A stretch of DNA of 46,272 nt, taken from assembly GCA_048882045.1 (NCBI GenBank), contig JBHLRZ010000004.1, forward strand, positions 1 to 46,272, read 5' to 3'. The position numbers and the translations under genes were made by a program. This DNA comes from Candidatus Thorarchaeota archaeon (GTDB lineage: Archaea > Asgardarchaeota > Thorarchaeia > Thorarchaeales > Thorarchaeaceae). The notes beneath the pieces are model-generated. The model was not told where the DNA came from and did no database searches. It was given only the letters and a program-made list of their open reading frames with translations. This document shows, in pieces, positions 2,675-10,156 of the stretch. Every line of letters starts with the position of its first letter. Position 1 is the first letter of the stretch.

Positions 2675-5600
2675 CTATTCCTCATCATCCTCAACAGGAA
2701 GGAGCTCTCTAAGTTGGGCTTTTGTCAACTTCTCCAGTTCCTCAATCCCCATCAACTCCTTTAGCTCTTCCGGCAACATTGCAATGATCTCTGACTTTGT
2801 CAAACGAGACTCGGGTCTAGTAGCAGTAGGTTCCTTGTCATCAATCTCTTCTGAAATGATGACATCTTCTGCTGTTGCACTTTCAATCTCATCGACCTCG
2901 ATTCTATCATCAGCAATCTCAGTAAGAGTTCTTCCATCGTCTCTCCTACTTCGTACACTACTTGATGCTCTTGACAAACCTTTTGCCATTCTTGACGATG
3001 TATAAGGTATGACAACCAGAAATACAACTGGCAGAAGTACAATAACACCCAAAGAGTAGCTTCTGAGAAAGTCCATGGTGAGTACTGTCGTCCCTGCTAG
3101 GACAACAAGGAACATGAAGAATTTCATGCGAATAGAAGATCCCAAGCTCTCAACAAGATCCGCACACTCCTGTTCAACAACAATCGGAGGTGTTCCTAGA
3201 ACAGCCATTTCTCCAAGTCGAGAAATTCCTTTCCGAATATCTCTGTAGACGTTCAGAACGACTATCACTATTGAGGAGATGTAGGCTGCAAATATGGTCA
3301 TCATGATAGTCGGTACCTGAATTTCACCAAGGTGAAAGACGTTGTCCAATACATAGAACTTCAACCATTCTATGTTCTGACCCCAATCAAATAGCTGCAC
3401 AATGACAATTGGTACGAAAATCAAATGCCATAGACCTAGAAACATTCTACGTCGGCCTATTCTCTGAGAGTGAAGTACCGATGAAGCTGCGTCTCTGTAT
3501 AACCAGATACCATATAGGATTAGTGAGATTCCCAAGAGTAACACGCTCTCTAGGACAGCTAGACTATAATTCCCTGACCCCGCTGATACATATGAATGGA
3601 AGATTGTAAGACCAGCTAGCGCTACAATGACTCCATACAAGTAGTCTAGTCTCCGAAGTCCTCTCAGGAGCTGCTCTTGTGAACCTCTAGTGAACGAAAG
3701 CCCGGAAGAAATTCGGAAGTAGATCCACAATCCAATGAAACTGACTAGAAATACGATCCCAAAGACAGGGACGAATTGTTCGATGGGTAGTGACAGCTGT
3801 GGGACTGCCACGATGACTGGCACTTCGGATAATGTCTGTGGTGAAAATGTAACACACATGATTCCCTCCGCTGCTATTACGATTGGTTCGTCTCCGTAAC
3901 CTTCTGATGCAACAATATAGCTCACAACATATTTTCCAATCTGACCGAGCTCCGTTGCCAACTTGGTCTGGCTCTGGAAAGTCACTGTAATAGTCAGGTC
4001 CGGCACTGGATTCCCATATTTGTCTGTCACCTCAATGGTGATATTCAACTGATCTCCTTGCTGAGGTACTTCTGGGAAGAATTCCACATTGAACACAAGT
4101 TCTGCATGTACTTCAATGGTCCCTCTTGTTGTGGACTCTTGCGCTAGATAGGGGTGATCAATTGTCAGAGTATAGTTGTATATCCCTGCTGCCCAACCCG
4201 CGGTTGAAACTACTCGAGAATACGTTCCATTGTTGTGGTCTACCAAGACAAAGAAAGAATCATGTATGAGGACTGAAACAGAACCGCCATCCATCACATT
4301 GTCAAGCATATCAAACAAATCAACTTTGAAGATAATGGAATCAGTACCCTGTATATATGTTGCATTCTCAATCGGTGATAGAAGTGTGATGTTTGGCTGG
4401 CTCTTCACTTCCAACATGAAGGTCGTTGTGCTTGTTGGTATGTGTAGGCCTGAAATCGTCACATTGAGAAGATGTTGGCCAGGAATCAATTCTGGTATGA
4501 AAGTCCAGATGATCTTGAAGTAGTCGGAGGTTCCTGAGAAACTGTATACGCCACCAAAGTCGAGTACATAATGGTAATCACCGATTGGATTGCCATATTG
4601 ATCTTCTACTGCTATAGTAAATGTAGCATTCTCATAATTGAGAAGAACCAAGGGATTCGTGTCAACTCTGACAATGGCATCTCCGATGATGTCGAAGCTG
4701 GCTGTCAGTTGCTGAGTTTCCATGAATGCTCCTGAGACGGTTATTTGTGCACTATATTCTCCTAGAGGGAGGTTCGTCGTTGTGATATTGATTTCGTAAA
4801 ACCCTATACTTGTTTCAATGAGTGGATATGTTGTACCATGTAAATATAGGGTCACTGTTGCACCTGTGATGAATGATGTTTCATTGTCACGGACACGAAC
4901 AACGAAATTGATAGTCTCACCCTGACTAAATGATGCTCCTGGAGAAGGTTGAATGATCTGTGCTGCGACAATTCCTTGTACACCTATACTAACATTATGA
5001 GTTGACCTAAGAATTAGATTGCTCTCAACTGACATATTCAACCAGTAGCTTCCCGGAACAAAGCTTGGATCTATGGTCCATGAGATTTTATGGGATGCTG
5101 AAAATCCTGACCTGTTGTAGATTCCTGCAAAGTCTAATGTATAGTTGAATCCAGTTAGCGCGTTGCCATAGGCATCTGTGACTGTGAAATCGAAGGTTAC
5201 ATTGTATTGATTAAGTACAGGGCTAGGGGTTATCGAGAGATCAACAGATGCATATCCCTTGACGAATAGCTGGAAGGAAATCAGCTGTGAAGACAGATAG
5301 CTGTGCGATATTGCAACCGTGATATTGTACTGTCCTAATGGAAGACCAGCTGTCGGAACTTGTCTGGAATACACTCCAGGAACTCCTTCAGTCAATGTAT
5401 ATGTGCTCCCACGTATCGTTGCAGTCACCAGTGCAGTTGAGATTGAATAACCAGCAAGGTCTTCAACAACTACTGTGAAGTTGATTTCATTACCTTGAAT
5501 GTACGTTGATTGATCCAAAGGTGAAGGTACAATTGACAATGGGTTTCCAATAATATCCACCCATATCATAAACTCGCTCTGAGATAGGAATGGTCCGCTT

Positions 5601-8600
5601 ATCGTTATATTAAGCTGATATTTTCCCGGATAAAGATCTGGTTGGAACTCCCAAGATGTTTCATAGGAATATGATGTTCCTGATTTCGTGAAGGTTCCAG
5701 CGAAGACGAAGTCATAGTCGAATGTATAGATTGGGTTTCCGTATGTATCTACAACAACAAAATCGAATCTCGAAGTCTGATGGTTATACACAATATCAGG
5801 CATAGAAACATCTACAACTGCCTGTCCGTTGACTGTCAGAACATGGTAGGAATCTTCTGCAAACAGGTATGTGTGTTCAATTAAAATCAGTAATGAGTAG
5901 TTTGCTGGTGAATAACCATTTGTATCCAAGTTCATCCAATAGGTGCCATCACCGTATGGTGTGAAAAGGATGCTAGCTGGACTCAGTAGTGATACAGTTG
6001 CATCAGGAATCAAACTCCCATACCAATCTCTAACTGTGACGGTCAGTGTCGTTAAGTCTCCTTGGGTCAATATCCATCCCAAAGAAGATTCAACACTTGT
6101 TTCAGGAAGCGAGTAAACAAACAGGTCGTGAGCATCAGCTCTTGGGTCACCAAAGTCTGCTCCCACATACACGATAATGCTATGCTGACCAACACTCAGT
6201 GAAGCATTCAGTGTTACTCTGAATTCTGCTCCTTCGATATGAGTTGCTGTATAGTTTGATCCACCAAGTTCAATTTTAGCCCAAGCACCAACAGGCGTGA
6301 CACCATATGAGTCGTATACAAAGACAGAAACTGTGAAGTTATTACCTCCTGTGACTGTTGACTCATAAGCAACAGCAGGCGCGAGTGTGCCAGTCACTGC
6401 CATATGATAGGAGCCAAATACAGTTCCTTCCACATAGGGATGTTGGATTATTATTTCTCCCGAGTAATTCCCAACTGGCATTGAAGCAATGTCGTTTAGT
6501 TGGTATCGCCCTGGTTCAATCTCGATCAATGTGAACTCAATTACACCAAAATCTACTGATACAGTCGCACTGCTAATGGGATTTCCAAAGGGGTCGGTAA
6601 CATTGAGCCACGTTGTGAATGACTGGTCTTGCTGTGTTTGTGGTGGAGAGTTTCGTAAAACAGTAAGATCGTATGCCACAACAGAAAGTGATTTTGAAAG
6701 ACTAGTCCCAGATGTGGCATACTGGTGATCTGCAGAAGCAAGAACTGTGTAACTACCTGGTGAAAGGTCGATTCCTATGATTGATCTAAAGTATGATCCC
6801 TCTACATAAGAAACTGGATAGATTATACCATCAAGCGTCACATTAACATCAGCATCTGTAACTTTCGAACCCAGGATGTCAGTTACTGTAATGTTGATGT
6901 GAAGGTTATTTCCCTGTAGGACTTCGGATTCTGTAAAGAGAGAAATACTGAGTGGTGACTCAACTCTCAGAGCATTCTCAAACTCGAAGCTGATTGGATT
7001 ATAGTAGAGGTGGTCGACATACAGAGACAGGTTAGCTAATCCCATAGGCCAGTTCGGTGCCACAGTCGTTGTGTAAAGCTGTGTAGAATCTTCATAGACC
7101 ATACCCATGGTTTGTTCTGAGGTTCCTATACCAAAACGATATGACGCCACAAGTGATACTGAGGCATCACTCACTGGTTCGCTGAAAACGTTGAGGACTG
7201 TGGTATTAGCCCATAAGCTACTACCCTGAAGTGTTACGCTTGTTTCAAGGTCGAATGCAACATCAAGCATGTATAGAAGGTCAATATTACGGATTGTAGC
7301 GAGTGTGTTTCGTGACTTGAATATCGGGAATGCTACAATGTCTTCTCCAGCCCCAACATCAACATTCCCAATAGGGGCCATGTTGAACGCGATACCCGGA
7401 TATGCTGCGTAGTCAATCGTGCCGCTAAAACTAATTGCAGTCAGAAGGTCATCGGATGTGGAAATGACAAACTCGTCCTCACCATCACCATCGAAATCTA
7501 GTACAATGCCACTTCTGGGTATGGCATCACTCACAAACACGGTCCAAGATTGAACTGCTGTGGTCGTTAGTTCATAAAGTGATGCATTACCACCCGCATC
7601 CAAAAATGATAATTCATCGACACCATCCTCATCAACGTCGTGAGGTAAGGTGACCCTGATATGTTGACCTGTAAATATGTAACTGGGCCAATCACCAACG
7701 TTCACTGTGTTTCTGTCTACTAGGCAGACATAATTTGTTGGTACGTCAACCAACCAACTGCGATAAACTACTAGTAGTTGATCGCTTGTGTGTGTTGAAT
7801 TCCTATATACTTGAATGCTGACTGGGTCGTCATAATCCGTTGCTCCTGGAGATGTGTAATTGAGTGTCTTCAAATACGTGACGTTATTGAGCTGATACAA
7901 GTAGACAGCATTATCGTACCTCAATATGGCTAGTTGAGGATCAGTACCGTACATGTTGATTGGTACATAGTCCACAATCGATGTCCATTCCTTTAAAGCC
8001 GCGTCAGTCCATGTGCCAAAACTATCATCTGCTCTAATCAAGAATTGACCCGTGCTGTTTTCCCCTACATAAGCCAGTTCGTCAATCTTGTCGCCATCAT
8101 CATCCACAATGACCATTCCGTGTGCTGCCTTTGCCGGATAGAGACTATATGATGTGTTTTTCCACGAAGTGAATGTGTCACCATTGAAGGCCCAGATTTT
8201 GATGTGAGTATAGTTGTTGCTGATGAGTATTGGATCCAGCACATTGTCACCATCAAACATACCTGTGTAAACTTCAAACACTTCATCCGTGGCATCTGTC
8301 AGAGTGAATTCACCAAGCTTTGTGAAATTAGAGCTGAAGACTCTCAAACTTGTACTCTTGAAATCCATATCTGATACAACATTGTATATTCGGCTCTCTC
8401 CAAGAGAATCATTACCGAGTGCCAAGACATGTCTTTGGGCCTCATCGAACGTGACATTATAGTGGACACCTGATGCAAGATGCCCCTCTACTGTCAAAAT
8501 GTGAGGATTGGAGAAATTGCCATAGGAGTATGTGTTCAAGAATGGGTCTACAACTTTGATGTAGTATTCGTAGTTTCCCGCTTGCAAATCTGTTTGGAAG

Positions 8601-10156
8601 AAGATGAACTTACCACCTTGTGCCTCAGTCATGGCATTCTCTTGATAGCCTCCTACAGCGAAGTCTGATGGGCGGATGTAGACTTTAGCTTCTCTTACAT
8701 ACATCTCATCAGTTGCTGTTAGTTCGACTTTGAGATAGGGATCATAGACTGTTGGATGAGTTGGATAGATAGGATCTAGAGTGACTTCAGGGGGAGCGGT
8801 ATCACTCAGGAGAATCTTGATTTGCCCATAGTGCATGATTGTGTCACTTCTCCCATCATTGTTAATATCGTACGAGAGCACCTGTTCAAAAGGTCCTGGC
8901 AGTCTTGGATCTTCATAACCGATTTCCCCGTTGCTACCTCTAATCAATGAAAATTGACCTGTCGGACCTTCTAGCACGACATCTGTGAAAGAATCTGAGT
9001 CAAGATAATCTGTGGCAAATCCGCGAGAAAACATGCTCACACACTCTTCCTGTGAGATTCTCAAAACTCTTCCATCGACCCCGCTAACAAAAATCACGGA
9101 AGACCTCATACCAGGGACAACAACTAGGTCTTCTTGCATGTCCATGTTGAACTTCCCTGTTTTCACATAAGACTCCCCTAGGTACTTCGTATCCCTAAAC
9201 GAAAACCTTGGAGTCAGATTAGCGTTGAGAGCAATTAGAACATTCTCTTGAGCAATATTATCAGCCATTGTTACTGCTAGATTATCGAAGTCATTATCAT
9301 ACTCAAAAGAAACCATGTCATAACCATGAACATGGGGAGTTGATAGAATGGGGGATGGATTTATAGATGTGCCATCTCCGTAAATAGTGTCAACAACAAC
9401 CCTACTGAGGGATGTCCATGGATCTTGTATCCACATGACTCCAATCTCATCACCAGCTGCAATCGAAAAATTGCCAACGCATACTTTTACAATCTCTTCT
9501 GTAGTAAATGGTATCTGTGGAAAGACACCAAGTATCGTGTCACTGTTAAGGTCTTTTATGACCAGACGAATTCTGCTATACACACCCACATCAATCAGTG
9601 AGTCACCATTGAAGTCTCCAACGATGATTCCAGTTGGATCTGGAATGGGATCATAGTTGTACTTGGTTACTGAACCTCCTCCATCAAAATCAACTACAAC
9701 GAGATTCGTATTCGTAAGGTTGAACATAATGAATAGAAACTCAGTGTACCCGTCCAAATCAACATCTGCTCCGATAAGCGTGTTGTGCAAAGGGTTTCCG
9801 AGTCCAATATTCACTGAAGCGTCAACTATGTTTATTGGATCTCTGAAGCGAAGTGTGTCATTGAATATCCAAACTACCCCACGTCCATGAGTAGTGTTCC
9901 CTGCTGCTACCGATGGGACATAGTACGGCAGGTTGACTCCTACTAGATTCGAAGCTGGTTCAAATTGACCCTCTATCTCATTGATTGAAATGACTGAGCT
10001 GTTATTCGAAACATCTATTGAACATAGAGACGTGAACAGCAACATCACGACAACTAATGGTAGTCCTATCTGGAGCAACTCTCTCTGGTTCTTGGAAAAT
10101 GGTTTTACACAGGGTCTAAAGCTGCTAACAGTTCGATTCTTCATCATTTCAATCAC
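2675..10156 (-). CDS. Giant cell-surface protein: 2 FG-GAP/VCBS beta-propellers + 12 Ig-like repeats + 7-TM domain + acidic cytoplasmic tail
   Basis: N-terminal hydrophobic segment; DxDxDG-type motifs (DVDLDGYTE, DFNGDSLID, DINNDGRSD, DDDGDKIDE, DVDEDGVDE, DFDGDGEDE); 12 repeats of VxDxxGxP-type motifs; seven hydrophobic helices at the C-terminus. Confidence 0.85.
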   Translation of the reverse strand: MIEMMKNRTVSSFRPCVKPFSKNQRELLQIGLPLVVVMLLFTSLCSIDVSNNSSVISINEIEGQFEPASNLVGVNLPYYVPSVAAGNTTHGRGVVWIFNDTLRFRDPINIVDASVNIGLGNPLHNTLIGADVDLDGYTEFLFIMFNLTNTNLVVVDFDGGGSVTKYNYDPIPDPTGIIVGDFNGDSLIDVGVYSRIRLVIKDLNSDTILGVFPQIPFTTEEIVKVCVGNFSIAAGDEIGVMWIQDPWTSLSRVVVDTIYGDGTSINPSPILSTPHVHGYDMVSFEYDNDFDNLAVTMADNIAQENVLIALNANLTPRFSFRDTKYLGESYVKTGKFNMDMQEDLVVVPGMRSSVIFVSGVDGRVLRISQEECVSMFSRGFATDYLDSDSFTDVVLEGPTGQFSLIRGSNGEIGYEDPRLPGPFEQVLSYDINNDGRSDTIMHYGQIKILLSDTAPPEVTLDPIYPTHPTVYDPYLKVELTATDEMYVREAKVYIRPSDFAVGGYQENAMTEAQGGKFIFFQTDLQAGNYEYYIKVVDPFLNTYSYGNFSNPHILTVEGHLASGVHYNVTFDEAQRHVLALGNDSLGESRIYNVVSDMDFKSTSLRVFSSNFTKLGEFTLTDATDEVFEVYTGMFDGDNVLDPILISNNYTHIKIWAFNGDTFTSWKNTSYSLYPAKAAHGMVIVDDDGDKIDELAYVGENSTGQFLIRADDSFGTWTDAALKEWTSIVDYVPINMYGTDPQLAILRYDNAVYLYQLNNVTYLKTLNYTSPGATDYDDPVSIQVYRNSTHTSDQLLVVYRSWLVDVPTNYVCLVDRNTVNVGDWPSYIFTGQHIRVTLPHDVDEDGVDELSFLDAGGNASLYELTTTAVQSWTVFVSDAIPRSGIVLDFDGDGEDEFVISTSDDLLTAISFSGTIDYAAYPGIAFNMAPIGNVDVGAGEDIVAFPIFKSRNTLATIRNIDLLYMLDVAFDLETSVTLQGSSLWANTTVLNVFSEPVSDASVSLVASYRFGIGTSEQTMGMVYEDSTQLYTTTVAPNWPMGLANLSLYVDHLYYNPISFEFENALRVESPLSISLFTESEVLQGNNLHINITVTDILGSKVTDADVNVTLDGIIYPVSYVEGSYFRSIIGIDLSPGSYTVLASADHQYATSGTSLSKSLSVVAYDLTVLRNSPPQTQQDQSFTTWLNVTDPFGNPISSATVSVDFGVIEFTLIEIEPGRYQLNDIASMPVGNYSGEIIIQHPYVEGTVFGSYHMAVTGTLAPAVAYESTVTGGNNFTVSVFVYDSYGVTPVGAWAKIELGGSNYTATHIEGAEFRVTLNASLSVGQHSIIVYVGADFGDPRADAHDLFVYSLPETSVESSLGWILTQGDLTTLTVTVRDWYGSLIPDATVSLLSPASILFTPYGDGTYWMNLDTNGYSPANYSLLILIEHTYLFAEDSYHVLTVNGQAVVDVSMPDIVYNHQTSRFDFVVVDTYGNPIYTFDYDFVFAGTFTKSGTSYSYETSWEFQPDLYPGKYQLNITISGPFLSQSEFMIWVDIIGNPLSIVPSPLDQSTYIQGNEINFTVVVEDLAGYSISTALVTATIRGSTYTLTEGVPGVYSRQVPTAGLPLGQYNITVAISHSYLSSQLISFQLFVKGYASVDLSITPSPVLNQYNVTFDFTVTDAYGNALTGFNYTLDFAGIYNRSGFSASHKISWTIDPSFVPGSYWLNMSVESNLILRSTHNVSIGVQGIVAAQIIQPSPGASFSQGETINFVVRVRDNETSFITGATVTLYLHGTTYPLIETSIGFYEINITTTNLPLGEYSAQITVSGAFMETQQLTASFDIIGDAIVRVDTNPLVLLNYENATFTIAVEDQYGNPIGDYHYVLDFGGVYSFSGTSDYFKIIWTFIPELIPGQHLLNVTISGLHIPTSTTTFMLEVKSQPNITLLSPIENATYIQGTDSIIFKVDLFDMLDNVMDGGSVSVLIHDSFFVLVDHNNGTYSRVVSTAGWAAGIYNYTLTIDHPYLAQESTTRGTIEVHAELVFNVEFFPEVPQQGDQLNITIEVTDKYGNPVPDLTITVTFQSQTKLATELGQIGKYVVSYIVASEGYGDEPIVIAAEGIMCVTFSPQTLSEVPVIVAVPQLSLPIEQFVPVFGIVFLVSFIGLWIYFRISSGLSFTRGSQEQLLRGLRRLDYLYGVIVALAGLTIFHSYVSAGSGNYSLAVLESVLLLGISLILYGIWLYRDAASSVLHSQRIGRRRMFLGLWHLIFVPIVIVQLFDWGQNIEWLKFYVLDNVFHLGEIQVPTIMMTIFAAYISSIVIVVLNVYRDIRKGISRLGEMAVLGTPPIVVEQECADLVESLGSSIRMKFFMFLVVLAGTTVLTMDFLRSYSLGVIVLLPVVFLVVIPYTSSRMAKGLSRASSSVRSRRDDGRTLTEIADDRIEVDEIESATAEDVIISEEIDDKEPTATRPESRLTKSEIIAMLPEELKELMGIEELEKLTKAQLRELLPVEDDEE

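Follow-up and report, generated by a model that had tools for sequence, protein, structure and literature searches.

Is an archaeal surface protein that carries propellers and immunoglobulin (Ig)-like domains on seven membrane helices a receptor, and does it have relatives among the known receptors of this shape? The question is raised by a giant gene from a Candidatus Thorarchaeota archaeon (assembly GCA_048882045.1, contig JBHLRZ010000004.1, positions 1 to 46,272; this whole stretch of 46,272 nucleotides is referred to as the window). Asgard archaea presumably live in tight physical association with other microbes and, to our knowledge, next to nothing has been established about the way in which their cells identify and cling to partners or surfaces. 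An earlier inspection of the letters of the window and of its open reading frames (ORFs), here called the sequence-only reading, had proposed a contact-sensing transmembrane receptor and had advised caution as to homology with G protein-coupled receptors (GPCRs). We find that the protein is an Asgard-restricted variant of the theme of a polytopic membrane module that carries an adhesive ectodomain, built with an orphan seven-transmembrane (7TM) domain. Our preferred reading, which is tentative and falls a little short of being probable, is that of a modular adhesion-receptor-like surface protein, the 7TM base of which couples the ectodomain to a cytoplasmic partner.

The gene is one uninterrupted ORF of 2,493 amino acids (aa), and the stop codon is counted in its coordinates. 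The order of parts deduced in the sequence-only reading (head, Ig-like stalk, seven transmembrane helices (TM1 to TM7) in N-out/C-in topology, cytoplasmic tail) is borne out by the ORF, Pfam matches, hydropathy, AlphaFold2 models, and glycosylation sequons. Many metagenome-assembled genomes (MAGs) of Thorarchaeota encode full-length orthologues of ~2,500 aa.

A Kyte-Doolittle scan recovers the very segments that had been listed before, namely one N-terminal segment and seven hydrophobic helices near the C-terminus (TM1 to TM7: aa 2127-2146, 2172-2191, 2199-2219, 2238-2256, 2283-2303, 2345-2363, and 2368-2386); AlphaFold2 also arrives at seven, and not at a different count, which would have told against the sequence-only reading. 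The loops after TM1, TM3, TM5, and TM7 are rich in lysine and arginine, and the longest loop (~40 aa) connects TM5 to TM6. In the AlphaFold2 model of the module (predicted local distance difference test (pLDDT) 82.6, predicted template modelling score (pTM) 0.75), seven long helices occupy the positions indicated by hydropathy. They are supplemented by a short outside helix and a hairpin between TM4 and TM5, and by cytoplasmic helical extensions of TM2, TM5, TM6, and TM7. The only N-x-S/T sequon of the membrane part falls into the predicted outside loop between TM2 and TM3, and the ectodomain carries 44 sequons (19 +/- 3.8 in shuffled sequences), 27 of which are located in the stalk. This distribution supports an N-out/C-in arrangement. 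Taken together, hydropathy, positive-inside loops, AlphaFold2 helices, and sequons establish seven helices with N-out/C-in topology.

The comparisons did not connect the module to any known family. The last 404 aa have no match in Pfam or NCBIfam, and hmmscan with the complete protein and with its C-terminal 404 aa (E <= 1) did not return any 7tm family, including 7tm_2. When 40 module sequences (alignment A1) were compared to Pfam at E <= 10, no family recurred, and the matches were scattered (DUF2178 in 4 of the 40 at 0.016; HlyIII, UbiA, and PMT_4TMC in single members). The 7TMR-DISM model PF07695 has no match in the genome from which the window was taken and reaches E about 0.94 in 2 of the 40 family members. 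Upstream of TM1, Pfam does not detect a GPS or GAIN domain. By sequence profile, A1 retrieves only noise from the PDB sequences (a designed protein at E 0.22, the beta-1 adrenoceptor at E 3.9-6.7).

Searches by fold brought up nothing that rises above the background of helical structures. Foldseek did not find a match at E <= 1e-3 among 350,542 PDB chains. The best query-normalised TM-score (0.34) was that of a designed bundle; class C GPCRs reached 0.20-0.23 and one rhodopsin 0.16, and the best 50 of the top 1,000 chains from Foldseek contained no GPCR or rhodopsin. The ESM Atlas yielded a best TM-score of 0.37 when searched by shape, and a best score of 0.80, which is chance level, when searched by language-model features. 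Neither Foldseek nor the ESM Atlas brought up a transporter or permease, the other outcome that would have told against the sequence-only reading, and hhalign comparisons of sub-alignments did not reveal an internal duplication of helices (probability <= 2.6%), that is, no transporter-style repeat. The module is an orphan family without detectable kinship to known 7TM classes, transporters, or families in Pfam and NCBIfam. The earlier caution concerning GPCRs was apt: no kinship to GPCRs, rhodopsins, or 7TMR-DISM receptors is detectable by sequence, and no such fold is found among the matches of the fold searches.

The orphan family is small. A HMMER scan of 1.84 billion representative proteins with aa 2105-2410 retrieved 103 relatives or clusters, 42 of them below 1e-30, and the module is almost always C-terminal in proteins of 1,300-2,500 aa. 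A locus survey by sequence pattern and tblastn covered 185,579 prokaryotic species with one genome each. It yielded 70 loci, which without exception are archaeal and nearly all labelled Thorarchaeota; the other labels are a few Promethearchaeota, Hermod-, Baldr-, and Njordarchaeota, and some read "uncultured archaeon" or "archaeon". A profile search restricted to the phylum of the window (Asgard) detected the module in 90 of 400 genomes, mostly from Thorarchaeota. Of 85 genomes that belong to the same family as the window, 56 contain it, and strong matches were obtained in four smaller families. Another large family shows weaker matches (13 of 135 genomes, E about 1e-30) which cover helices 2-7. 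Genomes carry 2-3 paralogues, with a maximum of four matches. As to single oddities, one of the 70 loci (L068, CAZWPQ010000022.1) is from a MAG with the label Nitrososphaerota. No other label lies outside Asgard, and an error in binning or labelling or, alternatively, a rare transfer might account for this one. In two genomes of one family (G295 and G296, family f27), some module matches contain one in-frame TGA or TAG, and a pseudogene, a sequencing error, or recoding are possible.

A survey of the ectodomains that share this TM domain in Asgard genomes, which the sequence-only reading had proposed, found FG-GAP propellers, BNR/sialidase-like domains, and CarboxypepD_reg-like domains. Among 28 full-length relatives, FG-GAP_3 is matched in 12, FG-GAP in 8, the sialidase-like BNR_2 in 8, and CarboxypepD_reg in 3. 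On the cytoplasmic side, a double zinc ribbon follows TM7 in 7 of the 28. Because the same module is found under at least three kinds of ectodomain and together with differing tails, we consider it a portable base. Distant members are named by NCBI as "sialidase family protein [Candidatus Sigynarchaeota]" or "zinc ribbon domain-containing protein [archaeon]". Such names refer only to the ectodomain or to the tail, so that the module itself is unnamed in the libraries and records that were checked. In the literature, our search did not find a paper in which FG-GAP is linked to Asgard, or FG-GAP and seven transmembrane helices to archaea. "Integrin repeat-containing" Asgard proteins have been mentioned (Liu et al., 2021, as cited in PMC9258230).

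The genome of the window also encodes a paralogue (contig C29, 11466-16502, plus strand; a 1,678-aa open frame, part of which is covered by locus L002). It has the same build, with an N-terminal anchor, an FG-GAP-like head, an Ig stalk, and a 7TM base which is 47% identical to that of the window protein. Two types, of ~2,500 aa and ~1,840 aa, seem to be both present in most Thorarchaeota genomes.

Alignment A1 indicates which parts of the module are under constraint (residues are given in module numbering). Four positions are invariant (P15, E226, F245, P272) and eleven are near-invariant. The conserved motifs are LYG[LI]WLYRDA at the inner end of TM3, GLWH in TM4, IEWF..Y[IV]LE in the outside TM4-TM5 loop, N.YRE after TM5, GTP..V...E in the long inner loop between TM5 and TM6, SSIR[IM]KF before TM6, and IP[YF].SS at the end of TM7. 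All of them are present in the window protein, which matches its relatives in phmmer down to E 4.6e-133. Conservation peaks in TM3-TM7 and is higher in the inner helix halves (2.71 bits) than in the outer ones (2.29 bits). A set of residues on the cytoplasmic face (Y70, W114, Y116, R117, D118, R133, W139, H140, Y200, E226, I238, R239, and K241) is kept in 80-100% of the 40 sequences. A second conserved set (G155, I158, W160, F161, P178) maps to the outside TM4-TM5 loop, and an invariant proline is located ~10 residues ahead of TM1. The membrane core is devoid of a conserved charged residue. Judged by sequence identity, the module is more conserved than the head: the orthologue at locus L013 is 74% identical to the window protein in the module and 47% in the head, and the corresponding values for relatives of the paralogue type are 43-48% and 27-29%. 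A two-copy structure prediction of the A1 module scored 0.27 against a mark of 0.42 and supports no claim either way.

The head consists of FG-GAP-type propellers with calcium loops. In a Pfam scan of the protein, FG-GAP_3 is matched in three stretches (E 1.7e-8), and strict DxDxDG-type loops are located at aa 131, 430, 840, and 887. For aa 55-965, the AlphaFold2 model obtained with 44 relatives is confident and all-beta (pLDDT 88.6), and structural alignment of this model resolved two complete propellers with a beta-sandwich between them. This agrees with the two clusters of calcium loops, split by one Ig-like domain, which had been noted from the sequence. Strands of the spacer are found at model residues 404-503, and the spacer is weakly matched in Pfam by X25_BaPul_like and by Big_13 (aa 505-547). 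Each propeller has ~31 strands in the model, and the best structural matches are 8-bladed propellers. The head had been described as integrin-like. The type of repeat stands, and the head profile weakly matches integrin alpha-V (E 0.012-0.1). The likeness to integrin does not extend to the overall head or to the anchor: according to the model, the propellers are probably 8-bladed and they are duplicated, unlike the single 7-bladed head of integrin, and the protein is anchored by more than one helix.

The stalk contains 12 Ig-like units spaced ~95 aa apart between ~aa 960 and 2100, the number that had been counted before (10 were found by a motif scan and 2 by eye). Pfam matches in the stalk are Big_1, Big_7, Invasin_D3, and Wzt_C within aa 1460-2080, and also BsuPI. 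The last unit before TM1 (aa ~2030-2086) matches the Ig folds of Big_1, CarboxypepD_reg, and Filamin type. Self-BLAST of the stalk at E 1e-3 did not reveal repeats because the units are too diverged.

Both ends of the protein carry conserved motifs. Of 40 full-length relatives of the Thorarchaeota type, 23 have S-x-[FY]-R-P (SSFRP in the window protein) at a distance of 10-14 aa ahead of the hydrophobic segment at the N-terminus, and RRP or RKP occur among the remaining ones. The segment may serve as a signal peptide, or it may escape cleavage and act as a signal anchor, which would make it a possible eighth TM. Cleaved signal peptides do not usually have a conserved motif in the n-region; its presence suggests, short of proof, that the N-terminal helix remains in place as an eighth membrane helix. 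At the other end, the tails of the window type keep LxEIAD and an acidic linker and close with a helical motif of 45 residues, for which alignment A3 has 10 invariant columns. The end motif comprises two LTK/LSK-x-[EQ]-L half-sites with P-E-x-[VLI]-K-E between them. When compared to Pfam, it gave matches to CAAP1, SAP, and HeH, all sub-threshold; when compared to the PDB, it matched designed repeat proteins only, via a short low-complexity match. Given that the tail matches are sub-threshold, helix-extension-helix serves as a lead only.

How could such a protein work? The data establish the architecture, the topology, the pattern of conservation, and the distribution of the family; ligand binding, coupling, and signalling are what we infer, as follows. 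At the tip, the two calcium-loop propellers would probably bind ligands or surfaces, and a rigid stalk of 12 Ig-like units keeps them away from the membrane. The protein is rooted, N-out/C-in, in the seven-helix module as a portable, Asgard-specific base. The near-invariant aromatic and charged residues at the inner ends of TM2-TM6, together with the helical TM5-TM6 loop, may form a docking or coupling site, and the outside TM4-TM5 loop and the invariant proline linker before TM1 may join the base to the stalk. Engagement of the ectodomain, or load on it, could then pass to the cytoplasmic face. We read the base as more than an anchor because of the conservation pattern and its modular reuse. 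The same two observations favour the contact-sensing receptor inferred in the sequence-only reading; the analysis did not bring up an output domain, a partner gene conserved across members, or a signalling component that would complete it.

Several points weigh against the coupling of the ectodomain to a cytoplasmic partner. No enzymatic or known signalling output domain is found on the cytoplasmic side of any member, and no neighbouring gene is common to all relatives. Cytoplasmic tails vary between members, and the paralogue type is nearly devoid of a tail, stopping ~27 aa past the IP[YF] of TM7. The needs of packing and of stable insertion could by themselves keep a multi-helix base conserved. 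The fold was predicted from an alignment of 40 sequences, and TM1 and TM7 are modelled less confidently (pLDDT ~67-78).

In the main competing reading, the base would be a heavy-duty anchor of an envelope or coat protein, perhaps with eight helices and maybe acting as a lateral organiser. It would only fix a very long, load-bearing protein in the single membrane of the archaeon, and nothing would be transmitted inward. The lack of an output domain and of a conserved partner gene, the variable or missing tails, the large, glycosylated, adhesin-like ectodomain, and the presence of 2-3 such proteins per genome, as expected of envelope components, all fit. However, near-invariant residues on the cytoplasmic face and a conserved helical loop of 40 aa are left unexplained, as is a base that is more conserved than the head. 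In addition, archaeal surface proteins are normally anchored by one C-terminal helix or by a lipid. We consider a pure anchor a serious contender which is, on this evidence, rather unlikely.

A bolder version of the coupling model regards these proteins as an Asgard class of modular 7TM receptors in its own right, evolved or deeply inherited. One transducer would be combined with interchangeable adhesive heads (FG-GAP or sialidase-like BNR propellers, or CarboxypepD_reg arrays), and contact or mechanical signals would be relayed via the inner docking site and via tails that differ by clade (an HeH/SAP-like helical motif or double zinc ribbons). If the N-terminal helix is retained in the forms from Thorarchaeota, as it may be, both ends of the ectodomain would be tethered, making it a giant loop, and the membrane part would be an eight-helix assembly. 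In this extended form we consider the proposal unlikely. The base might also be an effector itself, either an ion channel gated by the ectodomain, a small transporter, or a membrane enzyme with the conserved cluster of D, E, R, Y, and W residues at the cytoplasmic leaflet as active site. We regard an effector as distinctly improbable.

The weakest alternative is true, very divergent homology to eukaryotic GPCRs (adhesion type or class C), in which case the protein would represent the Asgard ancestry of 7TM receptors. The two agree in gross layout and topology, and YRD (TM3) and IPY (TM7) at the cytoplasmic helix ends superficially resemble the GPCR motifs DRY and NPxxY at TM3 and TM7, but the searches by sequence and fold described above lend no support to homology, which we consider very remote. 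Some structural clusters that Asgard archaea have in common with eukaryotes have been annotated as GPCR in a 2026 preprint (bioRxiv 10.64898/2026.10.28.762692), but these are not tied to the family described here.

Comparison with known systems clarifies what is shared and what is not. With adhesion GPCRs (class B2: latrophilins, CELSR, ADGRV1), the protein shares a very large, repeat-built adhesive ectodomain, seven helices in N-out/C-in topology, a tail, and a TM5-TM6 cytoplasmic loop which is the longest. In contrast to them, it has an Ig-like unit instead of GAIN/GPS before TM1 and lacks a 7tm_2 signature, and its predicted bundle does not bring up GPCRs in fold searches. We know of no heterotrimeric G proteins in archaea. 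The likeness to adhesion GPCRs is best regarded as an analogy of layout and not as membership. Integrin alpha has in common FG-GAP repeats with DxDxDG-type calcium loops, a propeller head, an Ig-like stalk (as analogue of thigh and calf), a membrane anchor, and a short tail. It differs from the window protein, which has two propellers, each probably 8-bladed, twelve stalk domains, and a seven-helix anchor instead of a single-pass one, and which lacks GFFKR in the tail. A counterpart of the integrin beta subunit was not identified.

Among prokaryotic systems, bacterial adhesins with FG-GAP/VCBS or Big domains (the propeller of Bap1/RbmC from V. cholerae; the Big_1 stalks of invasin and intimin) are either secreted or attached through a beta-barrel, through one helix, or to the cell wall, and none has this 7TM base. 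The 7TMR-DISM receptors (7TMR-DISMED, PF07695, and an output domain) also have an extracellular domain fused to a seven-helix module, but PF07695 is not matched in the window's genome, and a kinase, cyclase, or HD-GYP output domain is absent. Microbial rhodopsins differ in that TM7 of the window protein (aa 2368-2386) does not contain any lysine and thus lacks the retinal-binding one, and there is no Bac_rhodopsin match in Pfam.

A giant, lineage-specific, adhesin-like family on a conserved seven-helix base is a concrete candidate for the contact machinery of Asgard archaea. It would also be an example of a receptor-like architecture that was assembled independently of eukaryotic GPCRs and integrins. 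If the base does bind cytoplasmic partners, it would offer a route to signalling or to cytoskeleton coupling in Asgard cells. The module is well defined (~300 aa, a confident model, clear motifs) and is suited for inclusion in domain databases and for structural and biochemical study. New in this analysis are the model of a double propeller with probably 8 blades each, the survey of ectodomains and zinc-ribbon tails, the distribution among 400 genomes, the assignment of conserved residues to either face of the membrane, the motif at the N-terminus, and the synteny analysis.

Table 1. Parts of the giant surface protein and their positions in the window.
Feature	Residues (aa)	Window position	Strand	Basis
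Whole gene, giant surface protein		2675..10156	-	ORF list and translation
N-terminal cytoplasmic stretch with S-x-[FY]-R-P, then hydrophobic segment	26-51 (hydrophobic segment)	10004..10156	-	Hydropathy, motif comparison
Beta-propeller 1, FG-GAP type, calcium-loop motifs, probably 8 blades	68-452	8801..9955	-	
Beta-sandwich (Ig-like) spacer between propellers	458-557	8486..8785	-	AlphaFold2 strands, weak Pfam matches
Beta-propeller 2, FG-GAP type, probably 8 blades	558-957	7286..8485	-	
Stalk, 12 Ig-like units of ~95 aa each, sequon-rich	958-2104	3845..7285	-	Motif spacing, Pfam
Seven-helix membrane module (helices within aa 2127-2386)	2105-2410	2927..3844	-	Hydropathy, AlphaFold2, alignment A1
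Cytoplasmic tail: basic stretch, LxEIAD, acidic linker, end motif	2411-2493	2678..2926	-	Tail comparison
45-aa helical end motif of the tail	2449-2493	2678..2812	-	Alignment A3

The gene neighbourhood varies within the family. For the paralogue type, a block of genes encodes NUDIX, Macro, and pyridine-nucleotide disulphide oxidoreductase proteins and, on the opposite strand, a 509-aa protein (without a Pfam match) and a stand-alone CheY-like receiver. The 7TM gene is placed between the oxidoreductase gene and the latter two, which are convergent to it at locus L041 (8976-10997, minus strand) and at 29 other loci. The block is intact in one genome whose 7TM gene is found elsewhere (L056), and the link between the paralogue-type gene and the genes for the 509-aa and CheY-like proteins looks like plain Thorarchaeota synteny.

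What follows the window-type gene depends on the clade: a gene for a VWA protein in one, NIF3 in another. The VWA-domain protein (297 aa) is encoded convergently right after the giant gene at locus L013 (9255-10148, minus strand) and also at L014, L016, L018, L021, L022, L025, and L027; it is absent at the matching position in the window. There, short cassette-like genes are found downstream of the giant gene (stretch 173-2529, with a NosD-like ORF of 433 aa at 291-1592 and an ORF of 185 aa at 1694-2251). Upstream of it, a TFIIB-zinc-ribbon/winged-helix protein is encoded, and an MFS transporter and an SMC operon are located farther away.

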